A DNA stretch of 62,792 nt, filler included, from Hausera hauseri (taxonomy: Eukaryota): the NCBI GenBank assembly GCA_046269625.1. It is 12 parts of 12 records of this genome, joined end to end, with 100 filler letters (N's around TTAATTAATTAA, not from the genome) between each part and the next. Parts side by side here need not be neighbours in the genome. Positions count along the whole stretch, not along the records: positions 13,916 to 18,816 come from JBJURY010398256.1; 11 more parts are not named here. One strand, 5' to 3'. Positions 13,816 through 48,989 of this stretch are shown one piece after another (within the stretch, counting starts at the first letter, position 1; each line of letters begins with the position of its first letter). The notes below the pieces were generated by a model, which was not told the DNA's origin, did no database searches, and worked only from the letters and a program-made list of their open reading frames with translations. The position numbers were made by a program, and so were the translations under genes.

Positions 13816-14308
13816 NNNNNNNNNNNNNNNNNNNNNNNNNNNNNNNNNNNNNNNNNNNNTTAATTAATTAANNNNNNNNNNNNNNNNNNNNNNNNNNNNN
13901 NNNNNNNNNNNNNNNTTTATATTGTTAATTGTGTGTGTGATCCGGTTAAAAAAAGAGGAGTTTGATTGGAAAATGTAAATATATGTGAAATGCAAAATTG
14001 AATTATGTTATGTAATCGTGACGCAACCCCTGTAGACGTTCATGGAGACGGACAGGGAAGAGAGATGTATATGGACATTTATGTACGTATGGTGTGTATG
14101 CACATGCATATAAAGGGAAAAGAAAGAAATAATAATAATAAAAAATATATATTGTATATTGATCACAATTAATGATAAATAGAAAATTTGAAATTTGAAA
14201 TTTTCTGATACCTTGATAAAAAGTTATAAGATGAATTATATATCTGATCAGAATTTCAAGGCGTTTTTCTGTAATTTCCAATAAAAAGGAAGCAAATGCA
14301 TAAAAAGT

Positions 14309-15625
14309 TTGTGGAAACTGAAGATAAATCTACATAGGATCGATTCACGAATGATGGAGAGGAAAATGTTCTATTTAATGCTAGAAAAATGGTTAACTTC
14401 GGAATTATTTCACCATATTAATGAAGATGTTAAACCACAGATCTTTTATGCTAATGATGAAAATGATTATTTGAAAATTGTTGAGGAGTTGAATGATGTT
14501 GACGAACAGACTGATGCGTTGTCCAAGTCAAGCAGTGGATTCGGAACAAACAATATTAAACTAGTCAATTTTTGAAATATAAGTATACTGACCGATTTAT
14601 GGGTCTTACATGGTGAGGCTCACGTGCCGTTCTTCGATAACATTAGTAATAATTTAACGAATTATCTGACCACGGTAAACTACGAAGATAGTGGTGTTCG
14701 ATTCATCTCTCAGAAGTGTCTGCACGCTCTCCTTATCAAATTCGATGAAGATAACTCGATAAACACAACCGTCTTGAACCGCACCTTGTGCAATTTTCGA
14801 TGGATAACGTTGGTTTGGTTGAAAGAATTTCGACTTACCGACTTTTCTGCTAAAACGCATAATTGTGTAGATATTGCTGGAGACTGTAAAGATGAACGAA
14901 AAATGATAAATGGAGTTGAAGGTATTGTTTATTATACTGTTCATCATTGTTATTACTTGTCTTATCTTTTAGATGTTGGCAGGGGTTGTGAACAGGGTGG
15001 TGAAGTGTATATGTTTACGTTAATGATTGATGGGGGTTGCACGGTTGTGACGGGACTTAAATTTGAGGTTAAGAATGGAGTTAGGTATGTTCGTCGGTTG
15101 GAGTCGGGTGGGATACAATGTAACATCGTAGGCGAAAGGCAATCGATTTGGAATGATAAGAGTTATGGTCCCGGCTTAGTGGAATTCGTGTGTGATGGTG
15201 GAATAATTGTAGGTTTTACGTGTCTGGATAAGAACACCGGTTTGAACGATAATAAATGTTACATTTACACGAATTCATTATGCAAATGTAATAAAGATTT
15301 TCCATTTCTTGGTAGCAGAGCGTGGTATGTGCTCTTCTCCGTGATTCGCAGGCATAGAACACGTGAATCATTGGTCTTTCGAAGTATCCATTTCTGTCTT
15401 CTTGTTTTTGGAACTTATTCCTTCCGTTGGAATGTAAAAATAAATGAGGAAACTTTATGTAAAATATACACGATAAGAAAATACGGTGAAGTGAATAAAA
15501 TGAAACATCGTGACTATGTCACAGAGCCGACGCAAAATTCAGAAGTTGTAATATCTTGCGCCAAGAGCGATAAATATTTAAAAAGAAAAGATGAAAATGT
15601 CTGTTTCAAAAATCGCAGAGAATAG
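14309..15625 (+). CDS. Hypothetical ORF (14309-14575 and 14624-15625 share a frame, separated by one stop)
   Basis: 333 open codons in AT-rich DNA. Gly/Cys/beta-rich middle portion. Overlaps the start of the BEL gag ORF. Confidence 0.35.
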
Positions 15626-15947
15626 ACACCGACTGGCAGAATCAGTGGTAACCGTCTGGAGAGGCGAATACGTCAGAAGGTCCTTGTTCGAGGCGAGTAA
15701 CCTTAAGAAAATAAATGGATCACAGGAATTCAAAAGAGATTCGAAGTTTAAAATTGCTGAACCTCGAGTTAAAAGGATCTGTCAAGAATCAAATACCAAC
15801 GGTGTAAAGTGGGAAAAGATATTAGAGGATTGCATACTGGAAGGAAATAAGTCACAAAATTTGCAGGAGTCGTCTAAGGCGGATGAAAGAGAAGAACTCG
15901 GCTTTAAGGATTTTGTGCAAGGAACAACAAAGACAGAGAAAAGGAAA

Positions 15948-16175
15948 TTGACGGTATTTCTTGAGACAATATCAGGAAAAATAATTGCGATATTAGTCAA
16001 AATGTCGGATAAAGTGGAGGAACTGAAGTCGATTGCCGAGGAAAGAGAGGGAATCCCAACAAACCAACAATGGTTAATTTACAATGGAAAACTACTAAAG
16101 GATTCTCGGAAACTTAGTGAATATTATATTCAAAAGGATTCAACTGTTCATTTGCAGTCGCGGTTAAAATGTGGG
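15948..16175 (+). other. Ubiquitin domain within BEL/Pao Gag ORF
   Basis: Exactly 76 aa. 36/76 identities to ubiquitin by ungapped manual alignment. C-terminus LQSRLKCG. Confidence 0.92.
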
Positions 16176-17281
16176 AGTGAATTAACTGCAGACGAACTGG
16201 AAGATGGGATATCTGAGCGACTTAAGTACATCAACGACCTTTCAGCGATTCGGAGGAAGTTAATGGATGTAAACGTGAATGATCATGAATACGAAATGTA
16301 TAATAAAAAGTACGACAAGTCGTTTACCGAGCTTCAAGGGGAGTTGAGTAAACTAGCCACCGCGGCAAGAAAGTTGAGAAAAAAGGAAAACTTCACTTTG
16401 TTAAAGAATGACATGGAGAAACTGGACGATCAGAATGAAAAAATCAACGCGATCATCTATGAGAGAAGCTCAATAGATAATAAGATGATGATCACCAAAG
16501 AAAGTTCTGAAAAGGAGAAAAGGGAAAGAGTAATATTATCAAAGTTTCAAAAATTAAAGTTGCCGAAGTTTGGCGGGCTAGTTACGAATACGATAAATGG
16601 AAAAGGACGTTTGACACATGTATCCACAAAACCTCAATGTCGGGAATATACAAGCAACTACAGCTGAATCAAAGCTTGTATGGCGAGCCAAAAAAGCTGA
16701 TTGAAAATTTCAACCTATCAGAAGAAGAGTATAAAGCGTCCTTGGATTAATTAGATTCCTATTATGGAGGTGAACAACATTGTTATGCAGCGTTTATGAC
16801 CGAAGTTATAAGATTTGTGCTAATAGAGGAGGAAAATATTAAAGGGCTAGATAAATTCGTTGCGTTGCTAGAAGGAATAATTGTAAGATTGAGAAATCTA
16901 GGGAAAACGGAAGAACTTAGTGGAGGGCTATTGTATCACAGCCTCGTGGAAAAGCATCCTGAATCACTTGTGCTTCTATAGGAAAGGCATGTGATCGAGA
17001 AAAAGTTGGATAGGACAGTCATAAAATTAAAGAATTGGATCGAGATAGAAGCGATGGTTAGGAAAAATACTGTAGAGAGAATAAGGGGAATCGAAACCTT
17101 AAATCCAAGTTAAGATGGTCAATACACATCAATAGGAGATGGAAGGTCGTACTTTGCAAAAGGATAGCAGGCTGAAAAAAGGAAATATGAAAACACGAAG
17201 TCAAAAATAAGAGATCGAGAATTTAAAAGGGAAGTACAATCTAGCCACTACAATATACAGCGAGAAGATCAATCCCAGAGA

Positions 17282-17428
17282 TGCTGGAATTTTGATAAAA
17301 ATGGGCAGTGTAAATTCGGAAAGAACTGCAAATACTTGCATCAATCTAACAAGGACGATCAAAGAAGGTTATGTTGGTACTTCGAAAAAGGGGAATGTAA
17401 GTATTGGAATAATTGTAGGTTTCTACAT
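17282..17428 (+). other. Two CCCH zinc fingers at the BEL Gag nucleocapsid position
   Basis: CWNFDKNGQCKFGKNCKYLH (C-x8-C-x5-C-x3-H) and CWYFEKGECKYWNNCRFLH (C-x7-C-x5-C-x3-H), in the same frame as the protease. Confidence 0.9.
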
Positions 17429-18916
17429 GGAAAAATGGATAACAAGGAAAAGGTCAAAAATATTTGTGACAAAGAGGAAGTAGAGAGAAAAATTGAAAGT
17501 TCTCAGGAAAACATAGCATGTAGGACAGAAGAAGATTCACTGCCACGGGCGGCAGAATATGAAAAAGGAAAAGGGACATTGAATAAGAAAAAAGGTTTTA
17601 GTGCCTCTGTGACACAAGGTTCTCAAGAGGGAAACGAAAAAGAAGAGATGGTAGCACTGAAAAGAATGGAGGTGTGGTTACAAAATGGGACAAGAATGAA
17701 GAAAGCAATACTGCTACTAAACGATGCTAGTACCGAAAGCTTCGTTGATTCAAAGTTATGCGAAGAGTTAGGGGTTAATAAGAAAACGGAAAGGTTAACA
17801 ATAACGGTTGTCGGAGAAAAAAAGACTGAGATGTCTATTGACCGGGTAAAATTGGTATTGATGAACATAGACCGATCACTGGACGTACAATTTGAAGCGC
17901 TGGCTATGAGAAATCCAACTGAAGGGATAAGGGCAGTAAATTGGTTCATAGAAAGACAAAGATAGCTAAATCTGAAAGATTTAAAGTTCCCCAAGATGTC
18001 ACACAGATTGGAAGTGGATGGTATCATTGGGGCGAATTTTATAGAATTACACAGGTCAATCAAAAAGGTATACGGTAAAAGGGGTGCACCGGTAACGCGA
18101 TTAACCCCGTTAGGTTGGACCTGTGTCGGATAAATAAAAAAGGGAAGGAAAATCATAAATAGCAATTTTGGAAGGGCCTTTTGGACAAGGACAAGAGAAA
18201 TTTAAAAAGACTTCAGCCGATTATGGGAGGGCGAGTTTAACATGATGTAAAAGAGTCTGAGAGGTCCGAACAAGACAAGAAAACAGTGAAGGGTATACTA
18301 GATAAAACGACTTACGAGGAAAATAGATACTATGTGCCATTGCCGTGGAAGGGAAGGAGACAACCTGAAATGGAAATCAACGAATGGATGGCACGAAAAA
18401 TGTTGAAAACCTTAAAGAGAAAGCTGGACAAGGATGAGACGACAAAGGCAGCATACGAAAAAGTGATAAAAGCACACGCCAAGGAAGGGAAGAGGAGCAA
18501 GAAGAACAAGAGATAGCTTGGCTGTTACTGCACNNNNNNNNNNTATTACGAATGAGAAAACGACCATGAGTTGTCATATGCGATATCCAGTAAATGTTCT
18601 TACAGATTAAGGTCAAACAAGAGGATAAGAGATATCTAAGATTTCTGTGGTATAAGGACGGGAAACTCAGAACATACGAGTTAAATTGGTTGATATTTGG
18701 ATTGAACTCCTCTCCGTCTCCGGCGCAATTGATATCAAGACACAACGCCGAAAAATCCAAAATAAAATTCCCCAGAGCCGTAAAAACAATAGAGAATTCT
18801 ACGTACATGGACGATTNNNNNNNNNNNNNNNNNNNNNNNNNNNNNNNNNNNNNNNNNNNNTTAATTAATTAANNNNNNNNNNNNNNNNNNNNNNNNNNNN
18901 NNNNNNNNNNNNNNNN

Positions 18917-19620: not shown

Positions 19621-19832
19621 TTTTTTCACTAATTTTATTAACAGTATTCTTAATATGCCATTTTAAAAGAATATCTGAAGCTACAAGAGTCAAGGGACAA
19701 ATATTACTTTATGTCATTTAATCTATTTAAGCTATTAAACAATACATGCTACTTAAGGTCACCAATTTACTGCTTGATAAAATGTTCAGTGATACGCATT
19801 TTCTGAATCAACAATTGACTAAAAATAATCAA

Positions 19833-20550
19833 TTAAAAGTGCAGGTTAATTAATGATACAAACACCCCTGCAAAAAATAATCATTAATGATACAAACACC
19901 CCTGCAAACACAATCATTTTAGATACAAAACACCCCCAGAAGTTTGAGAATTACCNNNNNNNNNNNNNNNNNNNNNNNNNNNNNNNNNNNNNNNNNNNNN
20001 NNNNNNNNNNNNNNNNNNNNNNNNNNNNNNNNNNNNNNNNNNNNNNNNNNNNNNNTCGATTTACAGGTGACTTAATAATTTGTTTTCGTTACATTTATTT
20101 TCCACCTTTGTTTTCAATAATTTAAATTATTTCCCGCTAAATAAAGCGTACGCAGCCGAAAAGCACAGTAGGCTACGCGTAACCCTTAAATAATTAAAAT
20201 CAACAATAAGAAATTAATTCTTTCTTACTTTTCAGTAACTATTCATATAGGACTGGAACATTTAAAAAGTTTAACAAAAAGAGTAAGGAATATTTTCCAA
20301 GTAAAAATAGTAGAAGTTAAATTAGATTATTTCTACGGAGTCTGGAAAGCAGACACTTTTGAAGAATTTAGAAAAATACATAACGAGGAAGAAGACAAAC
20401 AGCTTCTTCTCTTTTGTAAAACAAAATATATATTCAAAACAAAACTTAAATTTAACCCAAACTGTCCACAAATATTGGATAAGTACATAGAAGAACAGAA
20501 ATCCATAAATTTAACTAAAAAGTGAAATTGATTGGATCAGCGAACCAACA
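19833..20550 (+). repeat. 5' LTR of a gag-only element (contains an N gap)
   Basis: Direct repeat of 22042-22724. Ends in CA 4 nt before the PBS. Confidence 0.8.
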
Positions 20551-20572: not shown

Positions 20573-20617
20573 TGTTCTTGAATCATAGAAACTAGAAAAT
20601 CAAAACTTAAACAAGGC

Positions 20618-21931
20618 TTGGCCGTCAACTCCACACAAAGTCCACGGTTTAATTTGAAAGATTTAACAATCGAAATCGAACCATTAAATATTGAATTATT
20701 AGAAAACAATAACAATATGGCACAGCCTATCAACCTAACTGTCTTTGAACCACTCAATATACCTAAATATAATGGTGACCCTGCAGGTTTACTAAAATTC
20801 CTAAAAACATACAAGCTCTTGAGTGAGGGATTAGGTGTTGAACCACCAGCTTACATTCGTAGAATGCCACTCTATCTAGATGAAGTTGCTCTAGATGTTT
20901 TCCAAGAGTTAACAGTCGAAGAGAAAGGCGACTGGGATAAGCTAACTTCAGTTTTAATTAAAAGGTTAATGTCAACTGTAACCCCAACAGCTCAACTAGC
21001 TATTTTGCAAAGACGATTCCAACAAACTGGAGAAACCGTCACCCAATACTCATACGCTTTATCTGAGCTAGTAAAAAATTATGCCAACACTGTAAAAACT
21101 CAAATTTTAATTAAAAAGCCAACAGCCAAAGAAGCTGAATTGGAAGTAGAAACCGATATACATTTGCTAACGCAGTTTTTAAAAGGTGTTAGAAAAGATG
21201 TCAAAACAGACATTTTAAAAAGAAATTGTCTAACGTTTAAAGAAGCAGTAAGAGAGGCGCAAAACCTGGAAGCCTATATGGGTCCTTTTAAAGATGATCG
21301 ATCATCAAAACCCAACCAAAAATTTGGTAATAATCAGCAAAACCAGCAGCAAAATCAAAATAGACCACAAGATACTGCTAATACACAACAGTACAATCAA
21401 AATAAATCTCAACAAAATAATAATTCAAGCAAACCACAAGGCAATTATAACAATTCAAATAATTCCTATCAAAAGGATAATAATCAAGGTAAAAAACCCT
21501 ACAATAAAAATACTAATTACTCATCTAATCAATATCAACAAAAAGGACGTATTGATTTAAACAAAACTGGTACAGCTATAGTTTGTAAACGATGCCAGCT
21601 AACAGGCCATAACTCAATAAATTGCATGACCCCTGTTGATCAGCTTCCAAGAATAAAACAAGAAAAAAGCGTAACTCTATCTTCTGTTCATGAAACATTA
21701 GAAGATGTAAAATTAAAATTGGATAAACTCCCACCAACAATTAAAGAACAATTTATTAATCAAGCTGCTAATGAAAGCAGAGAAGTGGATGAAATGTTGA
21801 AGCGTTATAACGCAGGAAAATATAAATCCCACATCTCATCCATGTTGGAAGAAGATGATTATACTGATGAATTTGTTACAAACAGTATAATCTTAACAAC
21901 CAGAAAAAGGGCAGTAGATAAGATCTTGTAA
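20618..21931 (+). CDS. gag: Intact Ty3/gypsy Gag (likely ATG at 20717)
   Basis: IPKYNGDP..FLKTY, LYLDEVALDVF, RFQQTGETVTQYSYALSEL, Q/N-rich linker, CCHC CKRCQLTGHNSINC. Homologous to the C3 Gag. Confidence 0.9.
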   Translation: MAVNSTQSPRFNLKDLTIEIEPLNIELLENNNNMAQPINLTVFEPLNIPKYNGDPAGLLKFLKTYKLLSEGLGVEPPAYIRRMPLYLDEVALDVFQELTVEEKGDWDKLTSVLIKRLMSTVTPTAQLAILQRRFQQTGETVTQYSYALSELVKNYANTVKTQILIKKPTAKEAELEVETDIHLLTQFLKGVRKDVKTDILKRNCLTFKEAVREAQNLEAYMGPFKDDRSSKPNQKFGNNQQNQQQNQNRPQDTANTQQYNQNKSQQNNNSSKPQGNYNNSNNSYQKDNNQGKKPYNKNTNYSSNQYQQKGRIDLNKTGTAIVCKRCQLTGHNSINCMTPVDQLPRIKQEKSVTLSSVHETLEDVKLKLDKLPPTIKEQFINQAANESREVDEMLKRYNAGKYKSHISSMLEEDDYTDEFVTNSIILTTRKRAVDKIL

Positions 21932-22041
21932 GGAATGTCTTTGACACCGGCAGAAGATTTGTTGCTTAAAGCAATGCCCATAGGCCCTGAATCAAAATTT
22001 GATAGTTTTGATTACAATGAAAATAATAATTACGAAATCAC

Positions 22042-22724
22042 TTAAAAGTGCAGGTTAATTAATGATACAAACACCCCTGCAAAAAACAATCATTCTAGAT
22101 ACAGACACCCCTGCAAAAAACAATCATTCTAGATACAGACACCCCTGCAAACACAATCATTAATGATACAAACACCCCTGCAAACACAATCATTTTAGAT
22201 ACAAAACACCCCCAGAAGTTTGAGAATTACCAGCAATTTATTGAAAAGAAAATTAGTAAAACACCCCCAGTTGTGAATTATGAATAACAATTCATCGTCA
22301 ATAAAAAACACCCCCTAGAAATTAGGCTAGTATAAATACTGAGACCAATTTCAACATTAACAACAAAAATTTTAGACTTATAGTCTAGCATTAAGAAACA
22401 AAAAAGTTTTCTTATTTACACGAAACCAGGTAGACCAACCTGATTTCTTTTTCAAGCATTCAATAACGAAAGCTTCCTGATAACCATTTCTTTTGGTTAT
22501 ACTCATTTCTTTTGAGTGATTTTTGGATACTGGTTCAGTGTTGTTCATTTCTTTTGGACAAGCCCGCTGCTGTACCTGTTCTCAAATAAATTTTGAGTTG
22601 ATTCCAGAAATTCAGTTTTGATTTACAGAAAACCGGTTTTGATTTTTTCGATTTACAGGTGACTTAATAATTTGTTTTCGTTACATTTATTTTCCACCTT
22701 TGTTTTCAATAATTTAAATTATTT
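22042..22724 (+). repeat. 3' LTR copy, truncated before the end of U5
   Basis: Matches 19833-20132. Contains 33-34-bp CACCCC tandem units (22063-22215), TATAAATA at 22331 and AATAAA at 22585. Confidence 0.8.
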
Positions 22725-24106: not shown

Positions 24107-27100
24107 TTATCTCAAACGCCAATGTCCGTAAGCCCAATTTTTATTTCGCCCCACCCACTTTCGCTTGTCATCGTTGCATGACAAAGCAACCTTTCTATTT
24201 GTGATGATCTACAGCTGGTGCTCAATCGATTGTATAATCGTTTGAAACACAACAACCTTTTCTCTTTCTCTGTCTTCCCGTCTTCTTGTCCATCATAGAC
24301 ACGGCAACAATCACAGTGATTTATTTCCGTCTGTTTCAGCTGGATGCCTTTTGCCCGCATTTTCGGCCCACAGTCTGTCAGAAGACTGTATCACTTTGGG
24401 CGCAAAAATATCCATTCACTGTATTGAACCCGGCCTTCATTTTTGTCCTTGAAGCAGCCGATTCTGTTTGTTATCACGCTGCTGTACAGTGGATGGACCC
24501 GTGGGTAGTTAGACGTGTCCAGTAGTTTATCTGACATCATTTGTCGGAGCAACTGGTTTCAATTGATGTTTTTCAGCTCAAGGAAGAAGCTGTCTGTGTC
24601 ACCGGCAACGATACTGATTTCACAGCCGCCGCCGCCGCCGCTGAACATTTGCCAGTAACGTGTCAAGTCGCGATATTGGAGCTCGTACATTCGCAACTTG
24701 TTCAGGTCCAATACCACTTGTCCAATGTAGTTTGGCCGGTCCAATACAACTTATTCCCGGTTTAGAAGCACGGCCACCAATCCATCGGCAATATGCATTG
24801 ACCGCCTGAACTGAGCCTTGATGGTGTACGTAACCATTCGTTTTTCGTTGTTGCACAGGCGCACATTGAGCCACTTCTTCAGATTTTCCACTGCTTTTCC
24901 GTACAGGGAATTGTTTTTGAGCTTGTAATAATCCTTTTTGAACTTTGTACAAGCTGTAGCACGTTTTCCGGAATTCCCATCAGTGTACGCCTTAAATATC
25001 GGCGCCTGATTGAAGCAGATTGAACGATGCAGTTGTGTGACGCGTACACCGAGCTGCATGTAAAACTGCAGCAGACGCCAATGAATCACGTAATTCGATT
25101 TGGGTTCATGTGTCATAAGCAGTTTCTTTACTTTTGAGCCACTGGGTGGACATTGGCTAATTGGTGCGACCGGCAGTTCATTTAGAAAGTCATGCAGCTC
25201 ATCCGGTACCACGAGATCAACTTCCATCAGGTAGCCGACTGAGCTGCTTTCTGTCGTGTTTGCTGCTGACAGACTGTCCAGCAATGTGTCCAGTTCTTGT
25301 TTGTCTATTATCCATTCAAATGAACCGTACGGCAAGGGTTGCGAAAGCGCCCAGCTGTACAGGTTATTAATATCGATGTACAACATTGACGTTGTATCAT
25401 CATCGTCATCACTGGTTAAATGATGCTTGTTGACAAATGTCATGCCGCTACGAATACCAACATCAAATAGTTTGTACATTTCCGGGTTTTGCAACAGCTC
25501 AAAATCCCTGTCCAGCGACATTAGTGCCGATGCCCAACTCATTCCCGGTATGGAGTAAAAGTTTAGCGGCTCCAGCCTATCTTCCGCCAACGTCTTAGCA
25601 CGAAATGTCTGAAACACATCGGATAACAAGTACACGTCCAATTTAAGATACTGGAGCATGTAATCCAACATGTTTCTGAAGCCGAGCTCTGTCCATGTTT
25701 CCTGTGCTCTCCTATATTCATCTTCCGTGATGCCTGTCCATCGAGGCGGCAATTCATCTGTTGTCTGAAGCTGCTTGTACGACACAGCAAAGTCATATGG
25801 GAATATGCCTTTGCTGCGTGAAATGTGTGGGGAACTGAGTCAATGTTAGCGGAACATCCTGCCAGGCATTTACGAGCTTTGCTAGAGACTCGTTGAGAAA
25901 TTGCAAGGAGTCAAGGAAGCGTACCTGGAACCGGTTTATGCGTGCTGAAAGGGACAGGTACTTCTCCATTGTTGGGATTATGGACAGTTCCCAGTGCGGA
26001 AATCCGTTGATGTCCCATTTTAGAATATGGTGACAATCATAACCTCGGAAATTATGAAAGATCACCGGCAGGAATGGCCGCACACGCCTTGCCAAATTGC
26101 ACGAATTGCATGTTGTTCCCAAATATCGACCGGTGAAATGATCATGGCCCGGTACAAGCCGTTCCAGTGCATCAAAAGGCAATATTTTGTGGCACAGGTA
26201 ACATTGATCGGTCGCAGCGAACATCAGCGGTTCATATTAATCTGTCCAAATCAGTGGTTTAGTGGAATTATTGCGATACCACGGCTCGATTTCCGTTTCC
26301 ACTATCGTTTCCAAACACTGCAGGAAATTACGTACACAGTTCCAGCCGTGAAAGGCGTAATACTGCGGCTGACCGACCGCTTTTATTGGGATAATCAACA
26401 TACCAACGGCGATTGGAACGTGCTTTTGATGATACACGTGCCGTGGTAGAATTGCCTCAATATCGGCATATACCACATGCCGGACTGTCCGTTTTCGACC
26501 AGTCACTGAATCCGAGCTCCTTTTTGAGTCGCATGACGTACATGGTTGTTCCCGTTGAATTCAGCTTGCACAGCGCCACATGTTTCTCCTATGTTGTTTT
26601 TGACCTGAAATCATGCAGACACACAGGACACCATTTACATTGTATACGCTTTTGGACAAACTGACGGTGATCCATGTTTAACAGTCTGTCCAAATTGGTT
26701 ATTGCCACGTAGTGAAATTTATCTGCTTGCTCCAACAGCAAAAAATTTACCGAGCATCCATTCGGGTTTCGACTGCGATAAATTATCCACGTGTGGGTTT
26801 TTGTATCTCTTTGTCTTCTGGTATTTCTACGATTATGTTGTACCGGAAAACGTTGATTGCCAGAGTAGTATTACGCCGTTCAAATGTTGGGGTGGATTTC
26901 AGTTTCATCGGCATCCAGCTTTCATCGAATTCCAATTCGGAAAAATATTGCCGATACTGCTTTGTACGATTTGCATGTTTTCTAACCACTTCGTCGTATT
27001 TTAATATAGCCAGAATACTGTAGATAAAACAGTATTCGTCGTCGGTATTTTTTACATTCACTACCTACAGAGACTGCTTTAGAGCTGCAGATGTCGGTAT

Positions 27101-33708: not shown

Positions 33709-36700
33709 TTGCTCGATCCCGCTGCACTGCATCCCCTTTCTCTTATTTTTTCTAATAATAAACATTTGTATAAACTGAGTGCTGCATGCAAACATACGGC
33801 ACACATTCTTTATTATGCATTTTCTTCCTTTTTAGGCTCCTCCGATTTTTATTCCATGCACAATGGCCTGACTCTGTTATCTTCCGACTCTCTGTCATCT
33901 TTTGCATTCGAAAAACATTCAATGATTCTCACTATTCTTCTTCGTATCCGTGGTGGATCAAACTCTGACCCTTCTGCCGAAAACTTAACCAAAACTAGAT
34001 CTCGTCGTCGTCCTGCCGACCCTACATTAAACCCATCTCCAAATCTCCGTTGCAAGGATTTTTTTTTCTCGACAAAACAAATTCTTGCCGTACCAAGTTA
34101 CAATTTCAATTGCAAGGGCTTAAAGCCAATTATATCACAGACTTTTTTTGCGGGCGAACATATTGCTGCTACTACTTCCGGCTAATATCAAGCAGCAAAT
34201 CAATAATCTTGCCGACATACTAACCTCTTCAAATCTATATGATATGCTTTATGAATTAGTTCTGCACATTATCGACCCTTCCCTTGACAGAATAATTCAT
34301 AAATACTTTAATGAACATTCCATCGGAAATTAAAAATCATCGGATTTCCTTATAACTGCAATATCCCAACTGAGTTCTTTAGGAGTCAGTCCTATAAACA
34401 ATGCCGATCTTCGTCGATATTTTCTTTCATCCTTGCCAACCTCCATCAGAGCGCTGCTCACGGTAGTAGACGACTCAACGGCCCATGAAAAGCTCACCTT
34501 ATTGGCAGACAAAAAGTTTAACATTTTGCAATCTAATAGTCAACAACCAGTAGCTTTAGCAACCGCTGACACACCTTCACACACAGATAACACTTCATTT
34601 TTACAAAAATCGCAAATGATGCATCAACTGTTTGACGAGTTACAGCCGCCAATTTTGGCCATTATTACCAAACTAAATAATCTTAATGGGCCTCGACAAA
34701 GTGAAACCAGACCTTCAAGGGAGAGAAGCATTTCCAGACACTCAACTCGATCTATTTCACCTGACGGACGCATGATTTGTCTCTATCACACGCGATTTTG
34801 AAGGGATGCTAGCAAATGTTTTTTGGGTTGTCGGTTCTACAGCAAACAATACGCTGTGGACAACCCCATTTGCGTCTATCACAATAAGTTTCTGTCACGG
34901 GCTACATCATGTGTGCCTGGCTGTAAATATTACAACGATAAATTTCCTCGCTTTTCCTTCTCCTATTCGTTTTCTCCAAAACCTTCAAAAAAGTAATAAT
35001 GACGCCAGATTTTACGCCACATTCTGGCTCAGGCAATATCGCTCAATCGTCTGGCCGTTTTAACACCACCTCTGCAGTCTTTCTATTGAAAGCTGTACTG
35101 TTATGCAGAGATACTTTACATATCGACTTCCTTAGAGACTCAGGAGCTGCCTTTTCGCTCCTTGCCTTGTCTTTCGTTCCTACATCGACTATGATTTCCT
35201 GTCCACCCCTTTTTACTGCCAGTGGTCAACTGATGCATGTTGCAGGAACCATAGAATTAACTTTCACATTCGCCAACTTGCCGGATAAATTTGTCTGGAA
35301 GTTCCATGTGGTCAACATTAAATCTCACATAATAGGCTCAGATTTTCTCACCGCACATGATCTATTGGTATATTGCAAATACAGCTGTCTTTTAAGCAGG
35401 AACTCAATTGCAACTCCAAACATGTGTCTTGTGGACAACTTAGCGAGCAATTCACTGCACTCATCTATTAACCTGTTGAACGCTTCGTCATCTATAAAAA
35501 ACTTCCGATAAAGCCGCCAATATTTCCATTATGAACGACAATCATAAGTCTATCCTAAAACAAAAATCCAAATTAGGCGTCAACAGTATCGATGCCAGTA
35601 GCTTTTCGTCAATCATTGAAGCTGTTCTCTCTAATGATATGCCTCATTCATTCTTGTTTCTAGACTCCAATCTTAAATCATACATCATAACGTCTTGCTT
35701 TCGCATAGTTAAAAGGGACATCAACTTCAAGCCTCCATCCACAACTTATCATTACATAGTAACAGAGCGTCATAGGCCGATCAAACAAAAGGTCAAACCT
35801 TTGTCGCCACGCAAACGTAAAACTGTGGAACAGGAATTTAATGAACTGGAAAGGTCTGGCATCATTCAAAGATTGAATTTACCGTGGGCGTCTCCTCTTC
35901 ATGTAGTGGAAAAGAAAGATAGTACCTATAGGCCATGTGGCGAATATCGACAATTAAACAATCTAACTATTACTGATGCCTATCCACTACCACTCATTAA
36001 AGATATTCTTCATGGCCTTAATAACAACAATACCTATTTTATCATTGATCTGCACAATGCCTACCATCAAATTCTTGTTACCCCTGATGACATTCCAAAA
36101 ACTGCTGTCATCACACCATTTGGCCTTTACAAATACATCTTCATGCCTTTCGGCCTATACAGTGTTCTCAGACCTTTCAGCGCCACATTGACACTGTTCT
36201 TTATGGTCTTGATTTTGCTCACACATACATAGATGACATATTAGTCGCTTCCAGCTCCATCAAACAACAACATGAGTACCTTAGAATTATCTTCCACAAA
36301 TTGCATCAAAGCAACCTGCAAATTAATTTCGACAAATGAAATTTCTTCCAGAAGCGCGCCAACTTCTTAGGCCACATAATTACTCCCAAAGGGCATTCGC
36401 CCCAGCTTAACCGCTTACAACAATTAAAAAATGTGACGTTGTCAACTACTACTACCGATATGAGGAGTTTTTTAAGGACATTGCATTTCTTACACAAATA
36501 CGTGCCACACTGCTCCGAACTAACAGGACGTTTCACAAACATCTCATCTGGGAAGAAAAGACAATTAATCCATTGGACTCACGATCTAGTAAACCAATTT
36601 GATCGCCTTCGTGAAGGTCTGAAAACTGTGGAAATCTTGGCCTTTCCAAAACCAAACGCTGAACTCATATTAACTGCCAATGCCTCAACCACAGCAACTG

Positions 36701-39464: not shown

Positions 39465-40230
39465 ATAGATATTGGAATTATTCCGGAGGAATCAAATCGA
39501 ATAGTAACTATAATTACCGACGAACAAACAAAAGACGAGGCTGTAAGGAAAGCGAGAGCTGAACATTGCGTAGGACGCATTATGGGAATCCGAGACTCTG
39601 TCATGCATTTTGACTACCTCCAAAGTCAGGAAGATAAGGAACAATACGATAAGAATCTAGTACCGACTAGCGAAGCAATACCAACTGAGCCGAAACAGAA
39701 ACGTGCAGTTGGAAGGCCGAGGAAAATAAGAGATGATATTGACCAAAGTGTAGCCCTGATACGAGAACTAAGACAACTATCCATGCCCGCGATTAACTCC
39801 GATAGCGAAGAATTAAACGAGCTGCTGAGAAACATTATAAAAAAAGTGAACTATTCGGGGCCAAGAAACGAGATGTTAAATGAAGAAGAAAGGGCAATTT
39901 ACGACGCAGCAAGGATAATGAGAACATTTCGGTTCAAAATGAACAAAAGCAACTTACCTGACGAAGTTTTAATCGAGAAAATTATGGTAGGGAACACTAA
40001 GGAAGAATTAAGGAAAGTAATATTATACTTGGCAATAAAAACAAATCCCCTAAAGGAAAATTAATTCAATAGAACCATTAGATTGATCAGAAAAGCTGCT
40101 AGGAAGATACGTAGAGAGATAAATTGGCCAAAGCTATTTGACAACAAAGATCGAAACAGACCGACCGCTAGAATTGAAGATGTGGTAAGAAATTTAATAA
40201 CAACTAACTCAGCGCGAGATAGTGAATCGA
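39465..40230 (+). pseudogene. N-terminal part of C9 ORF1, unknown helical region with an AT-hook (GRPRK)
   Basis: Same frame as the downstream glycoprotein, with one stop at 40062. 5' end cut by the contig edge. Confidence 0.6.
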
Positions 40231-42152
40231 ATTGGGTGATTAAATTAATAACACTTATAATGTTAATAAGACAACTCGGTACAATCACGGTATATGACTG
40301 TGATAAGTTTAAAATAGGTCAAAAATATTCCCTGATGGACCTGGAGTTGTTTGAGGATGCCAGACCCCACAAGTTAATAACCATTGAGAAAAAGTATTTC
40401 TTGTATCAACAACGCGAACTAATCTCAATAGATGGGATAGAATGTATGTTACGACGATCGCGAAGCATTTTTCACTGTGGAAATATGCACGGGTGTTCGT
40501 CAGTAGTAAAACCAACGACATCGCTAATTCCTATGGATTTAGATCGCCAACAATGCAAACAAGCCAGGGAAACAGGAAGATTGAGATGGGATGGGATGGA
40601 GTTAGAAGCCCAACCAGGAAAGATAATTCGAGTATATAAAGTAGCAATTGGGAAATTAGATATTCCCACCGGATACTGTAAAAGGGGTGAGTATGATACA
40701 GGAAAAAGAAGAGAAGCAGGAATAGTAGTGGTCGATTTCTATGAGACAGAAATGAGGAACTAAAAGGTGATGTTCCATAGTGTTACAAAAACATATACCG
40801 AGAACCAGAAATATCATATTCAAGATGGTGCCTGTACTTTCCGAAATTCGATAGTTATTTGCACCCCATCACCTATGAACGATTGTAACTTTATTAAAAT
40901 ACAAGAAATAAATTTTAATGAAACAATAGGAAAAAGATATGTAGAAACAACTGACAATAATGCCAGATCAAGGAAGGACGTAGCTGAACAGTCCACACCC
41001 ACGATATTGATCTCCGAGGATCACGGGTTAAAGTTCATTAAGAAGCAAATGCTTTCTCGATGTAATGTAGTAATGTATGCCACCAATTATGAAGCATTCG
41101 TCGTAGCAGAAGCTGCAATAACTACTTTTGTCCTGGAAACACAAGTTTTAAGAATAGATTACTTAAAGAATAGAGATGATTACTTCTATTATAAAGGGCA
41201 AATTGGACTAGCAGAATTATATCACAAGGTGATCGCAAATGACTGTAAATTGGGTATGGAAATCATGAGGACCAATCTATCCTTAATATACTCAAATCCA
41301 AAACTAGCATCGCCCGTAATTCCAATGAAAGAAGGCATTTTCGGAAGAGTTACCGGGGAAGTATTGTTGACCTATGAATGTGAAAAACGGGACGTGTCCA
41401 TAAACGTAGAGGAAAACCGTTGTATTCAAGAATTGCCAGTCATATATCAGAACGTACCTCGATTGGCTATGCAGTTTACAAGAGTTTTGCTAGAAAACCC
41501 GACACAGTCAACAATTTTGAAAGAATGCAAATCAGGTTTAGGGGAACCTACGTTTAATAGAAGTGAGACAGATTGGATAAGTCTGACAAATGGAAGAATA
41601 ATAGTTACACTTGGCAGATTTATCAGAACAAATTCACTAAGGGGAATAACAGACGATAAGTTCGCCGACACTGCAGGTAAAGGGATTTAAAGACCAAAGG
41701 AAATTGAAGCTTTCAGTCAATTCCTAGCCTTCCCTCGACAGCGTACACATGAGCTAAATAGATCCATGTCAACGGTGATGGATGACACTCGCTACCAAGC
41801 AAAATGTGAATCCCTACTCGGCGTTAATCATTATTAAAGAGTCACTACAGAAATACTATGTAAAATCTGGGGATGATTTTTAATTTTCGAACAAGCTGCA
41901 TCAGGATTTTTAGCCATCTACTTCTTGGTACAACTCGTAAAAGGTATAATTCAATCTATTATAAATGGCTATGAAATGTTTACCCTGACCGGATTTTTAT
42001 GCAAAATTTTGACCGCAATCACAACGCAGTTTGGAAAATTTTTTGAAGGCCTACGAAGAAAACAAATGGAAAAGCGACGTGGAGACACGTTGGTTAATAT
42101 AATCGAAAACAAAAGGGAAAACATATATTTTTTATGGGACAAAGAAACATAA
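40231..42152 (+). pseudogene. env: Chuvirus/herpes-gB-like class III envelope glycoprotein (in-frame stops only)
   Basis: Signal peptide then VYDC; C..HCG.MH..SVV; C..ARETG; GEVLLTYEC; CIQELPVIY.N..TRVL; GI*RPKEIEAF..FP; KIWG*FLIF..SGFLAIYFLVQLVKGII..IINGY (TM region). Confidence 0.85.
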
Positions 42153-45100
42153 AATTTCGAAAAAACGATTCGAATGATGATGAGCCTAAGGGAGCAGACG
42201 CGATCTCCAAGATACACAATCGCAAGACGTTTACGCCGTCTTTTCCCATGTTGCCCCCTTCGGCGCCGCAATACGAAGACAGCAATAAGAGATCTATTAA
42301 CTCATACAGTTCGGAAATTTATCGAAAGCCTTTCAGTTACGAAGATCCCTATGATGGGGCAAAACAATACGGTGTGTTACGAAAGATGTACCGAATTAAA
42401 GAAAGATCTGAATCATGCCGCCAGCTGGGAGATGATCACAAAATGATATACTCCCCAAGGATTTCACGGAATATAGAAACTAAATCATCAAATTGGGATA
42501 ATCCACGAATGCCATCTTTCCATAGTACAAACAATCGAGAATCGTTAATTAATACACAAGAACGGGATAACGAGAACGGCATAAATAATGGATTATATCC
42601 CATTGAAGAACTAAGGCAAGTAGTCGAAAATACGGTACCCGAAAATAGTATAAATGGGTACATGATATCCGTCGTTAGACAACCTAAGATAAAAGAAGAT
42701 AGACCTTTCACCAAAATTAGTATCGACGATTGGGAAGTATATGCACTAGTAGATACCGGATCGGAAAAATCATTCATAAAGAACGGATCGATACCAAAAG
42801 CACTACCGAATCAGCTACGTCTACCACTAGCAACTGATCCCTGAAGTGTAGGAGCTTTCGGACAAGAATTGAGACCAAAATTTAAATGGAACCTTAATCT
42901 TAAGATAATGGGACAAACTATCCAACACGATATATTGCGAGGTTTACCAAATATTGCATTAGATTTGAATACCTCAAAGTTAATCGAGCTTGAACCCATA
43001 AGAGTGACCAAGATTAATAAAGAAAGAGAATCCGGAGAAGTATGGATTCCGGTCGACGAGAACAATCCGCCTAGAACGGAATTTTTGATATTCGCGCAAA
43101 TCTGTCAAGACGATGATTTGCCAGTATAATTTGAGACGAAGGAAACGCTAAATCCAAGTATAATATTGAGCAACGTACTGACCCGAGTAGTATCCGGTCG
43201 AATACCCGTAAGAATAGTAAATAATTCTCAAATTCCAGTAAGGTTATAATCTAACACTACTCTAGGGCATACCTGCAAGGTATCAGCAATAACGGTTGAA
43301 GAGAAACCGTATAAATACCCTGAATTTCCAACACACGTCGATAGTAAATTTTCACCAGAGGCTTATTGTCAATTTTACGAATTGTTATGTCGATATATAT
43401 CAATTATTGCGAAAGACGAAGAAGACATTGGCCGAGCAAAGGCATTAAAGTTAACTATATCGCTTAAGAAAAAGCCTTGTTCCAACGACGAGATCGATCT
43501 CGAAGAGCAGGAAATGCCGAAATGGTATCCGCCGCCACATTCCTTCAAACCAGAGATAACCAAGGAGGTAGAACGAATGCTCAAAGCAGATATAATCCGA
43601 CCAAGTTTCAGATCATGGTATTCACCTCTCTTTTTGGTTAAAAAGAAGGGTACCATGAAACATCGAGTTTGTATCGATTATAGTGTTAAATACTCTCATG
43701 ATGAAAGATTCTTTTCCCTTACCATCTTTGAAAGAGGCTCCGGATAGGCTCTCCGGAGCAAAATGGTTCACCACCCTGGACTTGCAATCCGGATATTGGC
43801 AAGTAGATTGAGGATGAAGATCGTTATAAAACAGGGTTTAAAACTCATGATGGCGTATATGAATTTAACGTTATGCCATTTCGAATTACCAATGGACCAG
43901 CCATATTTATTAGTATGATGAATAAAATGCTAACGGGACTTAACCATGCATTTGCGTACTTAGATGACGCAATGATTGCATCAAAAGACGAAAAAGGGCA
44001 TCTGAAGGATATTGAGGACACTCTTATAAAATTAGAACAGGCCGGGTTGAAACTGAACCCAAAGAAATATAAATGGGCTCAAAACGCCGTATCCTGCCTT
44101 GGCCATATAGTTGGTGACGGAGGATCAAAACCCGGCAAATCATAATTGAATAAAATTTCAGACTGTGTGGAACCTCAGAACCAAAAAGAACTGATACATT
44201 AGTTAGGTCTACGTGGATATTATGCTATCTACGTACGGATAACTCAAACATCAATGCGCCATTATACCGATTATTAAAAAAGGGAAGGAAATGGAGATGG
44301 ACCGATGTTGAACAAAAGGCGTTCGACGAAATAAAGATAGTAACTAGCAAGCCGGTACTGAGATATCTGACTTTAACTTACCGTTTATTATTAAAATAGA
44401 CGCAAGTAAAGAAGGTATCGGATATGAATTGGCACAGAAACGCGAAAACGAAGAACTAGAACACCCAATTGCTTATTGAGGACGCTCTATGAAGAAGGCA
44501 GAGAAAAACTATTCAGTGACAGAACTAGAAATGTTAGCAGTAAAAGAATCCTTAAGGCATTTTAATGTTTGCGTATATCAACAGAAGATAATAATAGTAC
44601 CGCTCACAAGGCAGTTAAAACTTTAAAGGGACGAGCAAACAACCCTACGTGTAGGCTGAATAGATGGATTGAAGAGATCTCTAGGTATAATATTGAATTC
44701 CAATATAAACCTGGTGCGAAGCACGTTGATGCAGATGCGTTGTCATGATTAAAAAGGAAAACAAGTGCTATCATGACAATGAAGAAGAACCAGCTCGAAG
44801 AATTAGTAGACCGACAACGGATTTTAGCGCCAGACGGAGAAATGAGAATTTCGAGCGAACAAAAGAAGGATCGAGTTATCCAACAAATCATGGAATAAGT
44901 TCAAACAGACGTAATGCCAAAAGAGCGCCAGTTAAGGAAACATTTACAACGACAGGGACAAAAATATTGTGTCTCCGAGAACAAGAACAATGAAAAAGTG
45001 CTGTATTTCGAATGAAAAGGAAGATAATTAGTAGTCATACCCAAAATTCTACAAACTGAAGTTTTAGTAACCGAACGCGATTCGTATTTGGCAAGACACA

Positions 45101-46334
45101 TGTCCTGGAAGAAGACGTTCGATAGGGCGTTAAACAAATAGTATTGGCCTAGTATATATATTGATGTGAAAAATTGCGTAAGGGCTTGCGAAGTAGGCGC
45201 AACTAAGCAGAGGAAAATGAGGAATTACATAGCAGAGCTGAAACGGATAACTATGCCGGTCAGGTCGATGCAAGCTATGTCATTGGATATCGTAGGACCA
45301 CTTCCCACGACGCACAGAAATAACAGATATAAGCTAACATGCGTCGACCGTTTAACTGACTTCGTGGAGTTAGTAGCGCTATATGATCAGAAAGCAGAAA
45401 CATTAGCCGAAGCCGTGGTAAGGAAAATTATCTGTAGATATGGAGCGCCTGATCAGATACTAACTGATCGAGGGAGAAACTTCACCAGCAAACTATTCCA
45501 TAAAATTACGAAAATATTCGAAATCGAGAGGTTAATTACGACAGCTTACCATCCCCAATGTAAAGGAATGGCTGAGTGTATGAATGCTACTGTAATACGA
45601 ATATTGTCAACCGTAGTCGCGAAAGATCAAAGGATTGGGACGAATTCTTAGAAGGTACACAATTTGTCAACAATACGACACCACACCCCGCGACAGGATT
45701 TACACCATTCTTCGTGATGTATGGACGAGAAGCAGCATTACCTACGGACTTAGGAATAATTGCGTATGAAGCATATCTCGAAGAATTAGAACCAAATTTT
45801 GTAAAAGTTCTACAAATTAGACTGCAAAAATGTTGGGAGATAGCGAAGACGCTATCCTTAGAATACCAAGAAAGATTCAAAAGACAATATGACAAGAAAG
45901 CAAAACAGCACGATTTAAGAAACGGAGATTGGGTCTATGTGTATTACCCCGTAGCTAAAAAGGGTCCATCGTTACAACTCACGCGTGCTGGAAGAAGACC
46001 TTACAAAGTTATCAGAATAACACCCACTACAGTTTATGTTAATAAAAACGGAACGGAAGAAGTCGTGTCAATACAACAAGTAGTGAAAACAGAGATAAAA
46101 CCAAGTAAACAACATCGATTACGTGTAAAAGATACAAAAGCGAACCAGAAAACGAATCACAGGAAAGCCAAGACCTCGTCTATAGTTACCAGACCCATGT
46201 CTTACATACAGATAGTCTTAGCACTATCACTGATAGCTTCATATATTCCGAAAACCACGGCTCAAGGAGGATTGATTCGACAACTAAACAAATGGATGAA
46301 GGATGAATTGATAAGAACAAAAAGAAACGACTAG
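42134..46334 (+). pseudogene. pol: Ty3/gypsy pol (PR, dUTPase-like spacer, RT, RNase H, IN), decayed
   Basis: ALVDTGSEKS; SPLFLVKKK..RVCIDY; FTTLDLQSGYWQV; MPF..YLDD; IDAS; NYSVTELEMLAV; LDIVGPLP; TDRGRNF; TTAYHPQ; RPYKV. Confidence 0.93.
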
Positions 46335-48989
46335 AGCACCTAGAATCGATTCAAGGTCCAAAGTATAGATCCAAGACGAGACCGTGTGCTATTTAATACT
46401 GACGGAGCCGTGAGAAAATCAGTGAACTACCCAGTAGTTCTATGGAACGCGAATAAACGAGTAATGGCCCATTGCGATTTTCCGTATGGAGCTCGAGAAA
46501 GATGTATCATAGATTACGGAAACATTTATACCTTCACAATACGAATGTACTATAAACCTACGAACACAAACAAGGTGCGATAAGACCGCAAGTAAAACTA
46601 GTAATACCCGTCAAAGAACAGATCAATGCAACAGAGCTCGGTGACATAGTACCGTCAACCGACCCAATTAGATGGTATTTCCAAAGATAAGAAAAACAAG
46701 TGTATCCAAATAGATACAAAGGGAAGATTGCCAAACAACCAGGAGATCTCAATTCAATTTACTAAAATAAACGAGTTAAGTCCAGCTCCCAATTACTGTA
46801 GCATCAAGTACAAAGATCTTAGAATCTGTTGTAAAATCTCAGAAGGTTATGAATATAGGATTCATTTTGACCTCTATGGAATTCATATAAATAAACCGAG
46901 CACTTATTTAGGAAGATATTATCCGGACAGTAGAATCTGAAAAATTGTGGTTGGAACAATGACGACGAGACGAACTGTTCTAGTAAGCACTACTGTTAGG
47001 TTTAATACTAAAAAGAGGAGCAAAAAGAAATTACTTAAGATCTCTGTAAAGTGCTGGGCACAGCAACGCAAAATAATATTTTCAGTGGAAGAAAAGCTCA
47101 ACTCTAATATCGAAATAAATTGCCGTACGATGTATAAGAATGTAAAAACGACTTTATTGAAAGGCATATACCACACCGAATGCAACTCATTAGTACCAAA
47201 GACAGAATAATAATACCAATGCATGCAAAAGACCTGCAGAGCCGAACCTTCGCAATACAAACCCTAGAAGAAATACAAAATGCAACATATATAGACAAAA
47301 ACAAGACAAGAAATCACTACAGAGATAACGACTACCAAACCCGAAGGGTTGACTACATTACCCTTAGTAATGATCGTAAGCCTGTCAACCCTTGTACTTA
47401 TAATATGTATCGCGATATTTCGTTTAGTTGCCATAAATTGCCAAACTAAACGCCCTAAAATCATAGAACGGGAATTAAGGGTATTGGGACGCCATGAATA
47501 CGTCTATGATAAAATAACCTGACGATTACAGATCGGGTTATTCTGTCATCAAACAAAGAATTGGTTTTGGTTCAAAACCACACTTATTCATAAGATTAAC
47601 CCTTACTCTTTATTTTTTAGACTCGTGAGTAAAGAGAGAAATACAAAAACAGATACCGGACGACCTAGGATCGACGGATCACGACCTATCCAAGAACAAG
47701 AACAATGTAATATCGATAAATCACCAAAACGCCGACTTAATATTGACGAGTTCTTGCAGAATTACGCTATCATTCTCCGCCCAAATTCGAAATCAATATA
47801 TAGAGAAATGCATAATGAATTGCACGAGAAAACCTTCGTGAAATATGATCAGAACCGTAAAATTCCAAACAATTTAAAAGGTATTACGGAATGAAATAGG
47901 ATTGTTTACCTTTACGCCATGAGAGAAGACAAAGATGCCCGAGCATATTCACTCAAACAGATGATCACGTACGGGAACCGACAAAATATTTCTATCCACC
48001 TGGCAGACGGTGAGATATACTGTCGGTTCAAAGACCAAGAATGGAGCACAAACAACAGAAGACAATATAGATTCAATACTCTTAGCTTACATAGCCAAAA
48101 TTTACAGCATTATGAAATAGAATTCAGAGTAGCCGCCCTTCCCGTAAAATTAATGTTCGAAGTAGTGTACGACGATTACCCCTATATCAAACTGCCACTT
48201 TGAAATTCTGTCAACAATCGTCAGAAAAGGCCTTGGACACATTCGTACAATCGTGTCGACTAGTGGAAGATGCTAGAAATACCAGAATCATAGCAATCAA
48301 TTGTGGAGAAGGAGATGGTGCACAAAGGATCCCAATGGAAGTCTCAGTTCGAGAAACGAACGGAACCGAAGTATATTATATGATTATCAGCCCGAGAAAA
48401 CGCGTTCGCGAGACATACTATGATACGATAGGAATTCGGAAGGAAACACTCTCGAGAGGTAGAGACATAAAAATTGTTCAGGCCGAGTTAGAACATTGTT
48501 TATATTGATATATTATAACTGAATATCTCATCGATAGCATTGTCGAAGTCTTAGAAATACCCATGTCAAGTATCTTAGGAATGCATGAAATAGGGACGCA
48601 CCCAATAGTCGCCGAACAAAGTAAACGAATATTGCGAGAAAGGAATTACCCCGCACCAAAATTTATGGACGCCTATTTCAAATTAATGGTTGATGTCATG
48701 AACAGCGAACATTTTAAAATTAGCAAACTGTTAACCGCAAGTCAACGTACTCACTGCTTGCGCGATATTGACGTAGCTTTAAAGTGGGACCATGAGTGGA
48801 CACCCAATAACCCAGAACAAAATTTACGAAGTACATCCGACCCGGAAACTATAAACAAAAAGCATCGAAAGCAGTATCGTCCGTATTCCCCGTATAGAGT
48901 CGTGGAACCCATGGGACAGGATAATATCAAAATAACTATTCGCAAATCAGATCAATCGTACACCGCTCTGCCAAGCACCAGTTATGGTT
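46198..48989 (+). pseudogene. Post-integrase cargo: signal-peptide-led Cys-containing region, unknown domains and a DEDDh-like exonuclease fold
   Basis: Most ORF fragments (46386, 46728, 46947, 47625, 47919) share the integrase C-terminal frame. MSYIQIVLALSLIASYIPKTTAQ. ISG20/REX4-like segment at 48284-48787. Confidence 0.55.

Follow-up and report, generated by a model that had tools for sequence, protein, structure and literature searches.

A ubiquitin domain in frame before the Gag of a BEL/Pao-type retrotransposon lineage: a candidate signal for the release of Gag by host deubiquitinases

The window that we analysed is a stretch of 62,792 nucleotides (filler included) from Hausera hauseri. 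It is made of 12 small scaffolds joined by spacers, and most of the scaffolds carry retroelement remains. One of them, at 13,916-18,816, is occupied by an element with a ubiquitin domain in its first open reading frame (ORF1). The scaffold end falls inside the reverse transcriptase; RNase H, integrase, and the second long terminal repeat (LTR) would lie beyond 18,816. The features of the element, with the evidence for each, are as follows (P numbers denote related proteins from other assemblies, described below).

14,231-15,625, + strand: long upstream reading frame, with a 349-aa stop-free part at 14,576-15,625 (stop counts, shuffles)
15,372-15,382, + strand: motif like a primer-binding site (PBS), just after CA, at the putative 3' boundary of the 5' LTR (motif match; depth spike)
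15,582-16,667 (ATG at 15,591), + strand: ORF1, comprising a leader, ubiquitin, a helical region, and the capsid start LPKFGG
15,591-15,947, + strand: N-terminal leader of ORF1, without a known domain (Pfam)
15,948-16,175, + strand: ubiquitin domain (36/76 identical to ubiquitin; Pfam PF00240)
16,176-16,562, + strand: Gag N-terminal three-helix region (54-57% identity to P0002 and P0003)
16,563-16,975, + strand: Gag capsid domain DUF1759 (Pfam PF03564, tblastn frames), with a frameshift near 16,585 and a stop
17,279-17,428, + strand: two CCCH zinc fingers in the nucleocapsid position (Pfam PF00642 and PF18044)
17,651-18,139, + strand: Pao-type aspartic protease region, decayed (matched in tblastn by P0073, P0009, and P0019; motifs)
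18,546-18,815, + strand: reverse transcriptase fragment, which meets the end of the scaffold at YMDD (39-43% identical to Pao-type relatives, tblastn)

A preliminary description of this locus had reported a 76-residue ubiquitin, in frame within 15,591-16,667, and the domain is indeed there: it matches PF00240 with 71.2 bits (E 6e-20; cut-off 25.4), and the identity of 36/76 is a hand count on the match line against solved ubiquitin. Its in-frame neighbours are the leader, the helical region, and the first capsid residues (LPKFGG). Host ubiquitin genes are near-invariant and encode polyubiquitin or a ribosomal fusion, and this diverged domain is fused to Gag instead. As was also reported, the domain ends in RLKCG|S, that is, Cys-Gly followed by serine. 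The reported in-frame fusion of ubiquitin to DUF1759 is found uninterrupted in relatives, while in the window the DUF1759 match (43.9 bits to PF03564; cut-off 25.4) lies in another frame, behind the frameshift. That frame, running on through the CCCH fingers and the protease, contains 6 stops in 541 codons. Because of the frameshift early in the capsid domain and the six later stops, the window copy of the element is dead. The reverse transcriptase fragment matches Pfam's RVT_1 with E 0.005, below the cut-off.

We read other copies of the element from the contigs of one DNA run, which may be the window's own sample. Contigs matching the element number 1,250: 90 at 99% identity or more, 156 at 95-99%, 410 at 90-95%, and 594 below 90%. 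This spread implies a multi-copy family. The region around the ubiquitin domain (15,930-16,290) is covered by 79 contigs. All 7 contigs that cover ubiquitin position 75 differ from the window there, and all 7 encode glycine, so the Cys-Gly is private to the window copy and the di-glycine that the preliminary description asked about is intact in its sisters. Among 8 listed of the 79 contigs, at least two bridge the junction between ubiquitin and Gag, with 8-12% of letters differing. Over 15,930-16,290 there is no indel at a share of 25% or more, and none is listed in the bridging contigs. With other copies bridging the junction and carrying the di-glycine, the domain is not confined to the window copy.

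The variation among the copies gives a modest sign of selection. Considering sites at a share of 25% or more, 14 sites vary among copies inside ubiquitin, and 9 of them are third positions (p 0.017). The preliminary description had raised the question of a low dN/dS; the excess at third positions is in line with it, and the share of silent changes (7 of the 14; p 0.07 against 28% expected) is weaker. We take this as a modest sign that the family is under purifying selection. Of 23 differences listed over 15,930-16,290, 7 have at least 94% of the depth against the window and so are private to its copy; 6 of these are replacements and 1 is silent, a modest sign that the window copy itself is decaying neutrally. 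The window copy would have lost its di-glycine after insertion.

The relatives from elsewhere are records from ENA, JGI, and MetaClust, each a single gene call known from its protein alone. A search of longer proteins gave 2 matches among 6,720 candidates. One of these, P0002, begins MAFKLKGG|S, that is, inside the ubiquitin domain; the other, P0003, has a 160-residue leader and then a diverged domain ending in LKGG|S. With part of P0003 as the query, 1.84 billion representatives were then searched, and we used the best 150 of 2,060 matches. When we made a ubiquitin profile from four relatives, it gave 6 significant rows among 152 proteins, namely those four plus P0017 and P0016; like P0002, P0016 starts inside the domain. 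The survey for PF00240 together with DUF1759 that the preliminary description had proposed found the two domains together in 5 of 16 proteins that we scanned with Pfam (P0006, P0007, P0009, P0015, and P0017). Altogether, 8 relatives carry a ubiquitin domain or its tail in the same place, and 7 of the 8 end in Gly-Gly, with a small bias toward GG matches because the search query contained P0003's GG. The exception, P0017, ends in EG and looks decayed from its protein sequence. In the 7 GG relatives, the di-glycine sits 125-134 residues before the capsid-motif proline; the stretch is shorter in P0017. Thus, homologues do not lack the in-frame fusion, as they might have: distant relatives have it without interruption.

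Further searches, for loci with DNA context, yielded none in viral contigs (with an X-read Gag) or in metagenome contigs (with an alignment query), and a degenerate GG-to-capsid pattern matched 2 viral and 22 metagenome sequences, 0 of 24 being related by tblastn.

The fusion marks a subset of these Gags, because 40 of the 142 other rows in our first tree have at least 200 upstream residues and no ubiquitin. In a tree of the capsid region, which places the window among DUF1759 Gags, a branch with support of 69/88, obtained after leaving out P0128 and P0130, separates the rows with ubiquitin (9) and those cut at the N-terminus (4) from 37 ubiquitin-free rows. With these two kept, the 37 ubiquitin-free rows plus P0130 split off at 94/93. 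The trees allow a single origin of the ubiquitin-Gag fusion.

One might ask if the domain is a neutral passenger, from a ubiquitin mRNA captured by chance in one copy or family and without a role. Pieces of mRNA are often captured by LTR elements (PMC5131818), and a single origin of the fusion has no more than moderate support (69/88). However, position, frame, and tail are the same across families whose Gag helices are 12-29% alike. Furthermore, ubiquitin is better conserved than the adjoining Gag: P0006 and P0015 share 51 of 76 residues in ubiquitin and 19 of 124 in Gag. This alignment evidence largely refutes the passenger reading, which we regard as extremely improbable. Judging from sequence, the ubiquitin before a BEL/Pao-type Gag is a real, lineage-level feature.

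The DUF1759 capsid, the protease, and the reverse transcriptase, in this order, fit Belpaoviridae (BEL/Pao). The protease (17,651-18,139) and then the reverse transcriptase (18,546-18,815) lie downstream of Gag, as placed by tblastn with Pao-type relatives, although they are decayed in the window copy. The element shares with BEL/Pao elements a DUF1759 Gag, a Pao-type protease, and a reverse transcriptase in the same order, and it may share a PBS. It is unlike the usual BEL/Pao element in that it has ubiquitin before Gag, CCCH fingers where the triple Cys-His box would be, and an open frame across the PBS-like motif. Its nucleocapsid has two CCCH fingers instead of the three CCHC-type knuckles of typical Pao-like elements, so we do not file the element in the triple Cys-His box subgroup. 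Tas, an example listed by ICTV, also lacks that box (PMC554778). The window forms one subgroup (100/99) with P0002, P0153, P0003, and P0004: P0002 has two CCCH fingers and P0153 at least one, while P0003 and P0004 end before that region. P0009, which bears ubiquitin, keeps CCHC boxes. One literature search listed no description of CCCH fingers in a BEL/Pao nucleocapsid.

We compared the ubiquitin domains of the window and the 8 relatives (9 rows), with residues placed in groups that we take to represent the core, the tail, and the binding surfaces. Of 108 cells in the hydrophobic core, 104 are conserved. In the tail, L73, G75, and G76 are kept in 25 of 27 cells, the exceptions being in the window and P0017; L73 is present in all 9 rows and position 74 is arginine or lysine in 8 of 9. 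In contrast, the surface residues (L8/R42/I44/H68/V70/R72) are canonical in 17 of 45 cells, and the lysines in 30 of 48. The residue following the di-glycine is serine, glycine, or methionine in the 7 GG rows and never proline; in the window it is serine. Outside the window's subgroup, identity between families is 12-29% for the Gag helices and 20-44% for DUF1759. The predicted ubiquitin fold of P0006 (about 79% identity) superposes on ubiquitin at about 1 Å rmsd, and in the same model the ubiquitin fold is connected to three long helices by the tail (151-154), which is modelled with low confidence. Models of the relatives likewise suggest three long helices for the N-terminal region of Gag. 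Wide structure searches returned ubiquitin or generic helical bundles. Retention of the fold and the tail while the binding surfaces drift is the pattern expected for a protease substrate, and so the conservation favours, at the level of sequence, a processing signal over a decoy.

The decoy that this pattern disfavours would be a domain that stays attached to Gag and, as a decoy or docking module, binds ubiquitin receptors, the proteasome, or chaperones in the manner of the ubiquitin-like (UBL) domains of Rad23, Dsk2, and BAG1. Some rows are indeed near ubiquitin (P0006), and the window keeps I44, K48, and H68. The layout of a UBL plus three helices also resembles AtBAG1 (Z 14.6, but with an rmsd of 14 Å and 10% identity). 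Nevertheless, it is the tail and not the patch that has been kept, and integral UBL domains generally have no di-glycine. Furthermore, cleavage is the normal fate of a GG that is exposed on a folded ubiquitin (PMC4522658). Attachment as a decoy seems unlikely to us; a chaperone role for the domain would be compatible with the sequences.

Cleavage would also expose a free GG on the leader-ubiquitin, which host E1 might then charge and conjugate, so that it would tag host proteins or poison chains. Two relatives, P0006 and P0007, have the full LRLRGG motif, and 5 of the 9 rows retain R72. But R42, R72, and the I44 patch, which are needed for use by E1 and E2, vary, and R72 is absent from P0003, P0009, and P0015, which makes conjugation quite improbable. 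We consider it very improbable that the Gly-Gly is a flexible linker or a site for the element's own protease, with ubiquitin as a mere aid to folding or solubility. The tail is flexible in the model and the element does encode a protease; however, a linker would need neither the invariant L73 nor a basic residue at 74, and retroviral-type aspartic proteases are not known to read LxGG.

The fusion occurs in several copies and in distant families, with the conservation pattern described above. In our reading, this BEL/Pao-type lineage carries a host-derived ubiquitin in frame directly before Gag, and it is likely that host deubiquitinases cut after Gly-Gly and release Gag. An ancestor would have captured a piece of ubiquitin mRNA by template switching, and the product would be leader-ubiquitin-Gag(-Pol). 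Enzymes of the USP or UCH type would cut this polyprotein as they cut host ubiquitin precursors. Gag would thus gain a fixed N-terminus, with the three-helix region (16,176-16,562) at its start. Selection would keep the fold and the L-x-G-G tail and let the binding surfaces drift. The layout of a processing signal (a folded ubiquitin, a GG, and the same frame) is found in 7 of 7 contigs of sister copies and in 7 of 8 relatives; the window copy is without it.

The usual view is that LTR retrotransposons process their polyproteins with a protease that they encode themselves. If our proposal is true, the first cut has been handed to host deubiquitinases, and the element depends on a host enzyme through which its activity could be controlled from tissue to tissue. 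The domains, which range from about 79% identity to ones that can hardly be recognised, also form a natural survey of deubiquitinase requirements. In cells, engineered fusions to ubiquitin are cleaved rapidly, and a proline that follows the GG hinders this (PMC4522658). Divergence from ubiquitin does not exclude cleavage, because USP36 and USP16 cut Fubi, whose identity to ubiquitin is 36% (PMC10611586).

Cytopathic pestiviruses (BVDV Osloss, CP1, and CP Rit) have likewise taken up ubiquitin from their host, in frame and ahead of a viral protein. In cytopathic BVDV, cellular ubiquitin C-terminal hydrolases cut the insert to give the authentic N-terminus of NS3 (PMC8310069 and PMC13517609), while here the cleavage is predicted from sequence. 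The pestivirus insertions are recent, independent, and found in single strains; the element's ubiquitin stands before the capsid in many families. If we are right, the element carries an old, kept version of a trick known from sporadic pestivirus insertions. The host precursors UBA52, UBA80/S27a, and Fubi-eS30 also place a ubiquitin fold and a GG before a cargo and have them removed by deubiquitinases (PMC4522658 and PMC10611586). Those precursors are products of host genes and start with ubiquitin, whereas in this selfish element it is internal, behind a variable leader. LTR-mediated retroposition (Tan et al. 2016, PMC5131818), which fuses pieces of mRNA, often in frame, with LTR elements, is a plausible route of capture; its retrocopies interrupt the element, whereas here the domain is a kept part of Gag.

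In the literature we found no description of a retrotransposon Gag capped by ubiquitin, although annotation in Repbase, Dfam, or GyDB is possible. The word "ubiquitin" is absent from the main text of a BEL/Pao survey (PMC3118150) and of PMC554778, and the ICTV profile of Belpaoviridae (PMC8742986) names no ubiquitin domain. The available portion of a review of giant transposons (PMC6431247) mentions ubiquitination-related domains of Burro only.

The most diverged domain is that of P0003. It has no sequence match in Pfam or PDB, the HHalign probability is 3%, and its shuffle z scores against four ubiquitin domains are 4.4, 3.4, 1.8, and -0.1. A structural model, made with no homologous rows over the domain, has the beta-grasp order of elements at a pLDDT of about 40, and has only weak ubiquitin-like structure matches (E 0.15-0.57). 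From the model, we consider it probable that this is a ubiquitin domain; it is so diverged that a host deubiquitinase may fail to recognise it. An Atlas search with residues 155-330 of P0003 gave no match. The model of its capsid matches the PNMA2 and Copia capsids weakly.

Upstream of ORF1, the frame at 14,231-15,625 has 2 stops in 464 codons, as compared to 40 and 54 in the other forward frames, and its 349 stop-free codons were reached by 0 of 1000 shuffles. It is present in other copies (contigs of the one run), runs across the PBS-like motif, and at its end overlaps with the beginning of ORF1. The motif at 15,372-15,382, a putative primer-binding site, is the sole exact match in the window; allowing up to 1 mismatch, there are 4 matches in the window versus 1.96 expected. 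This position is probably the 3' boundary of the 5' LTR. In Belpaoviridae, the PBS is complementary to tRNA-Arg or tRNA-Gly (ICTV profile, PMC8742986). The 349-aa part has no match in our protein collection, in Pfam (six frames), in the Atlas, or in PDB, and the last part of the frame is weakly similar to the beginning of P0003 (E 0.004). The Gag ORF may in truth begin with the upstream frame, or the frame may be an accessory ORF of its own. Frame arithmetic rules out a -1 ribosomal slip from it into ORF1, which lies in its +1 frame. No frame-joining indel at the overlap is among the 12 of 44 indels listed, and each of two diverged contigs covering this stretch shows 2 gaps.

The relatives differ in the leader that precedes ubiquitin, and these leaders cannot be aligned with one another. 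In P0015, residues 76-141 are a fragment of HSP90 (44.8 bits), in frame before ubiquitin and Gag in a single gene call. We tentatively suggest that ubiquitin might be a cleavable socket: translation would start far upstream, in the LTR, and read through the PBS and a changeable leader, possibly with captured host pieces, and deubiquitinases would free Gag. In P0002, Gag and protease run at residues 700-1016 into a host CFAP58 coiled coil, which may be a captured mRNA or a join made in gene calling. This tail shows that gene calls can include host sequence, which counts against the socket, as does P0015 being a single call. If the socket exists, the lineage could express arbitrary N-terminal cargo without harming the capsid, and the cargo-ubiquitin would be released with a free Gly-Gly.

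Elsewhere in the window, an LLRIRGG|S motif at 33,940-33,963 lies in an open frame shortly before a gypsy-type Gag. It resembles a ubiquitin tail weakly (tblastn E 0.008), with about 0.6 such motifs expected by chance (a rough estimate), and we did not count it as a second ubiquitin-Gag fusion as its HMM score is 0.4 bits (E 2.3). At 39,465-48,989 there is a decayed gypsy-type element, with ORFs that by eye are like envelope glycoproteins before gag-pol. On the minus strand at 24,751-25,839 is a type B DNA polymerase of the organellar or viral kind (PF03175), on a scaffold with higher GC (44%), which is probably a Polinton-like remnant. Finally, a gag-only ORF (20,582-21,931) lies between terminal repeats (19,827-19,955 and 22,036-22,231) that contain a tandem unit of 33-34 nt.
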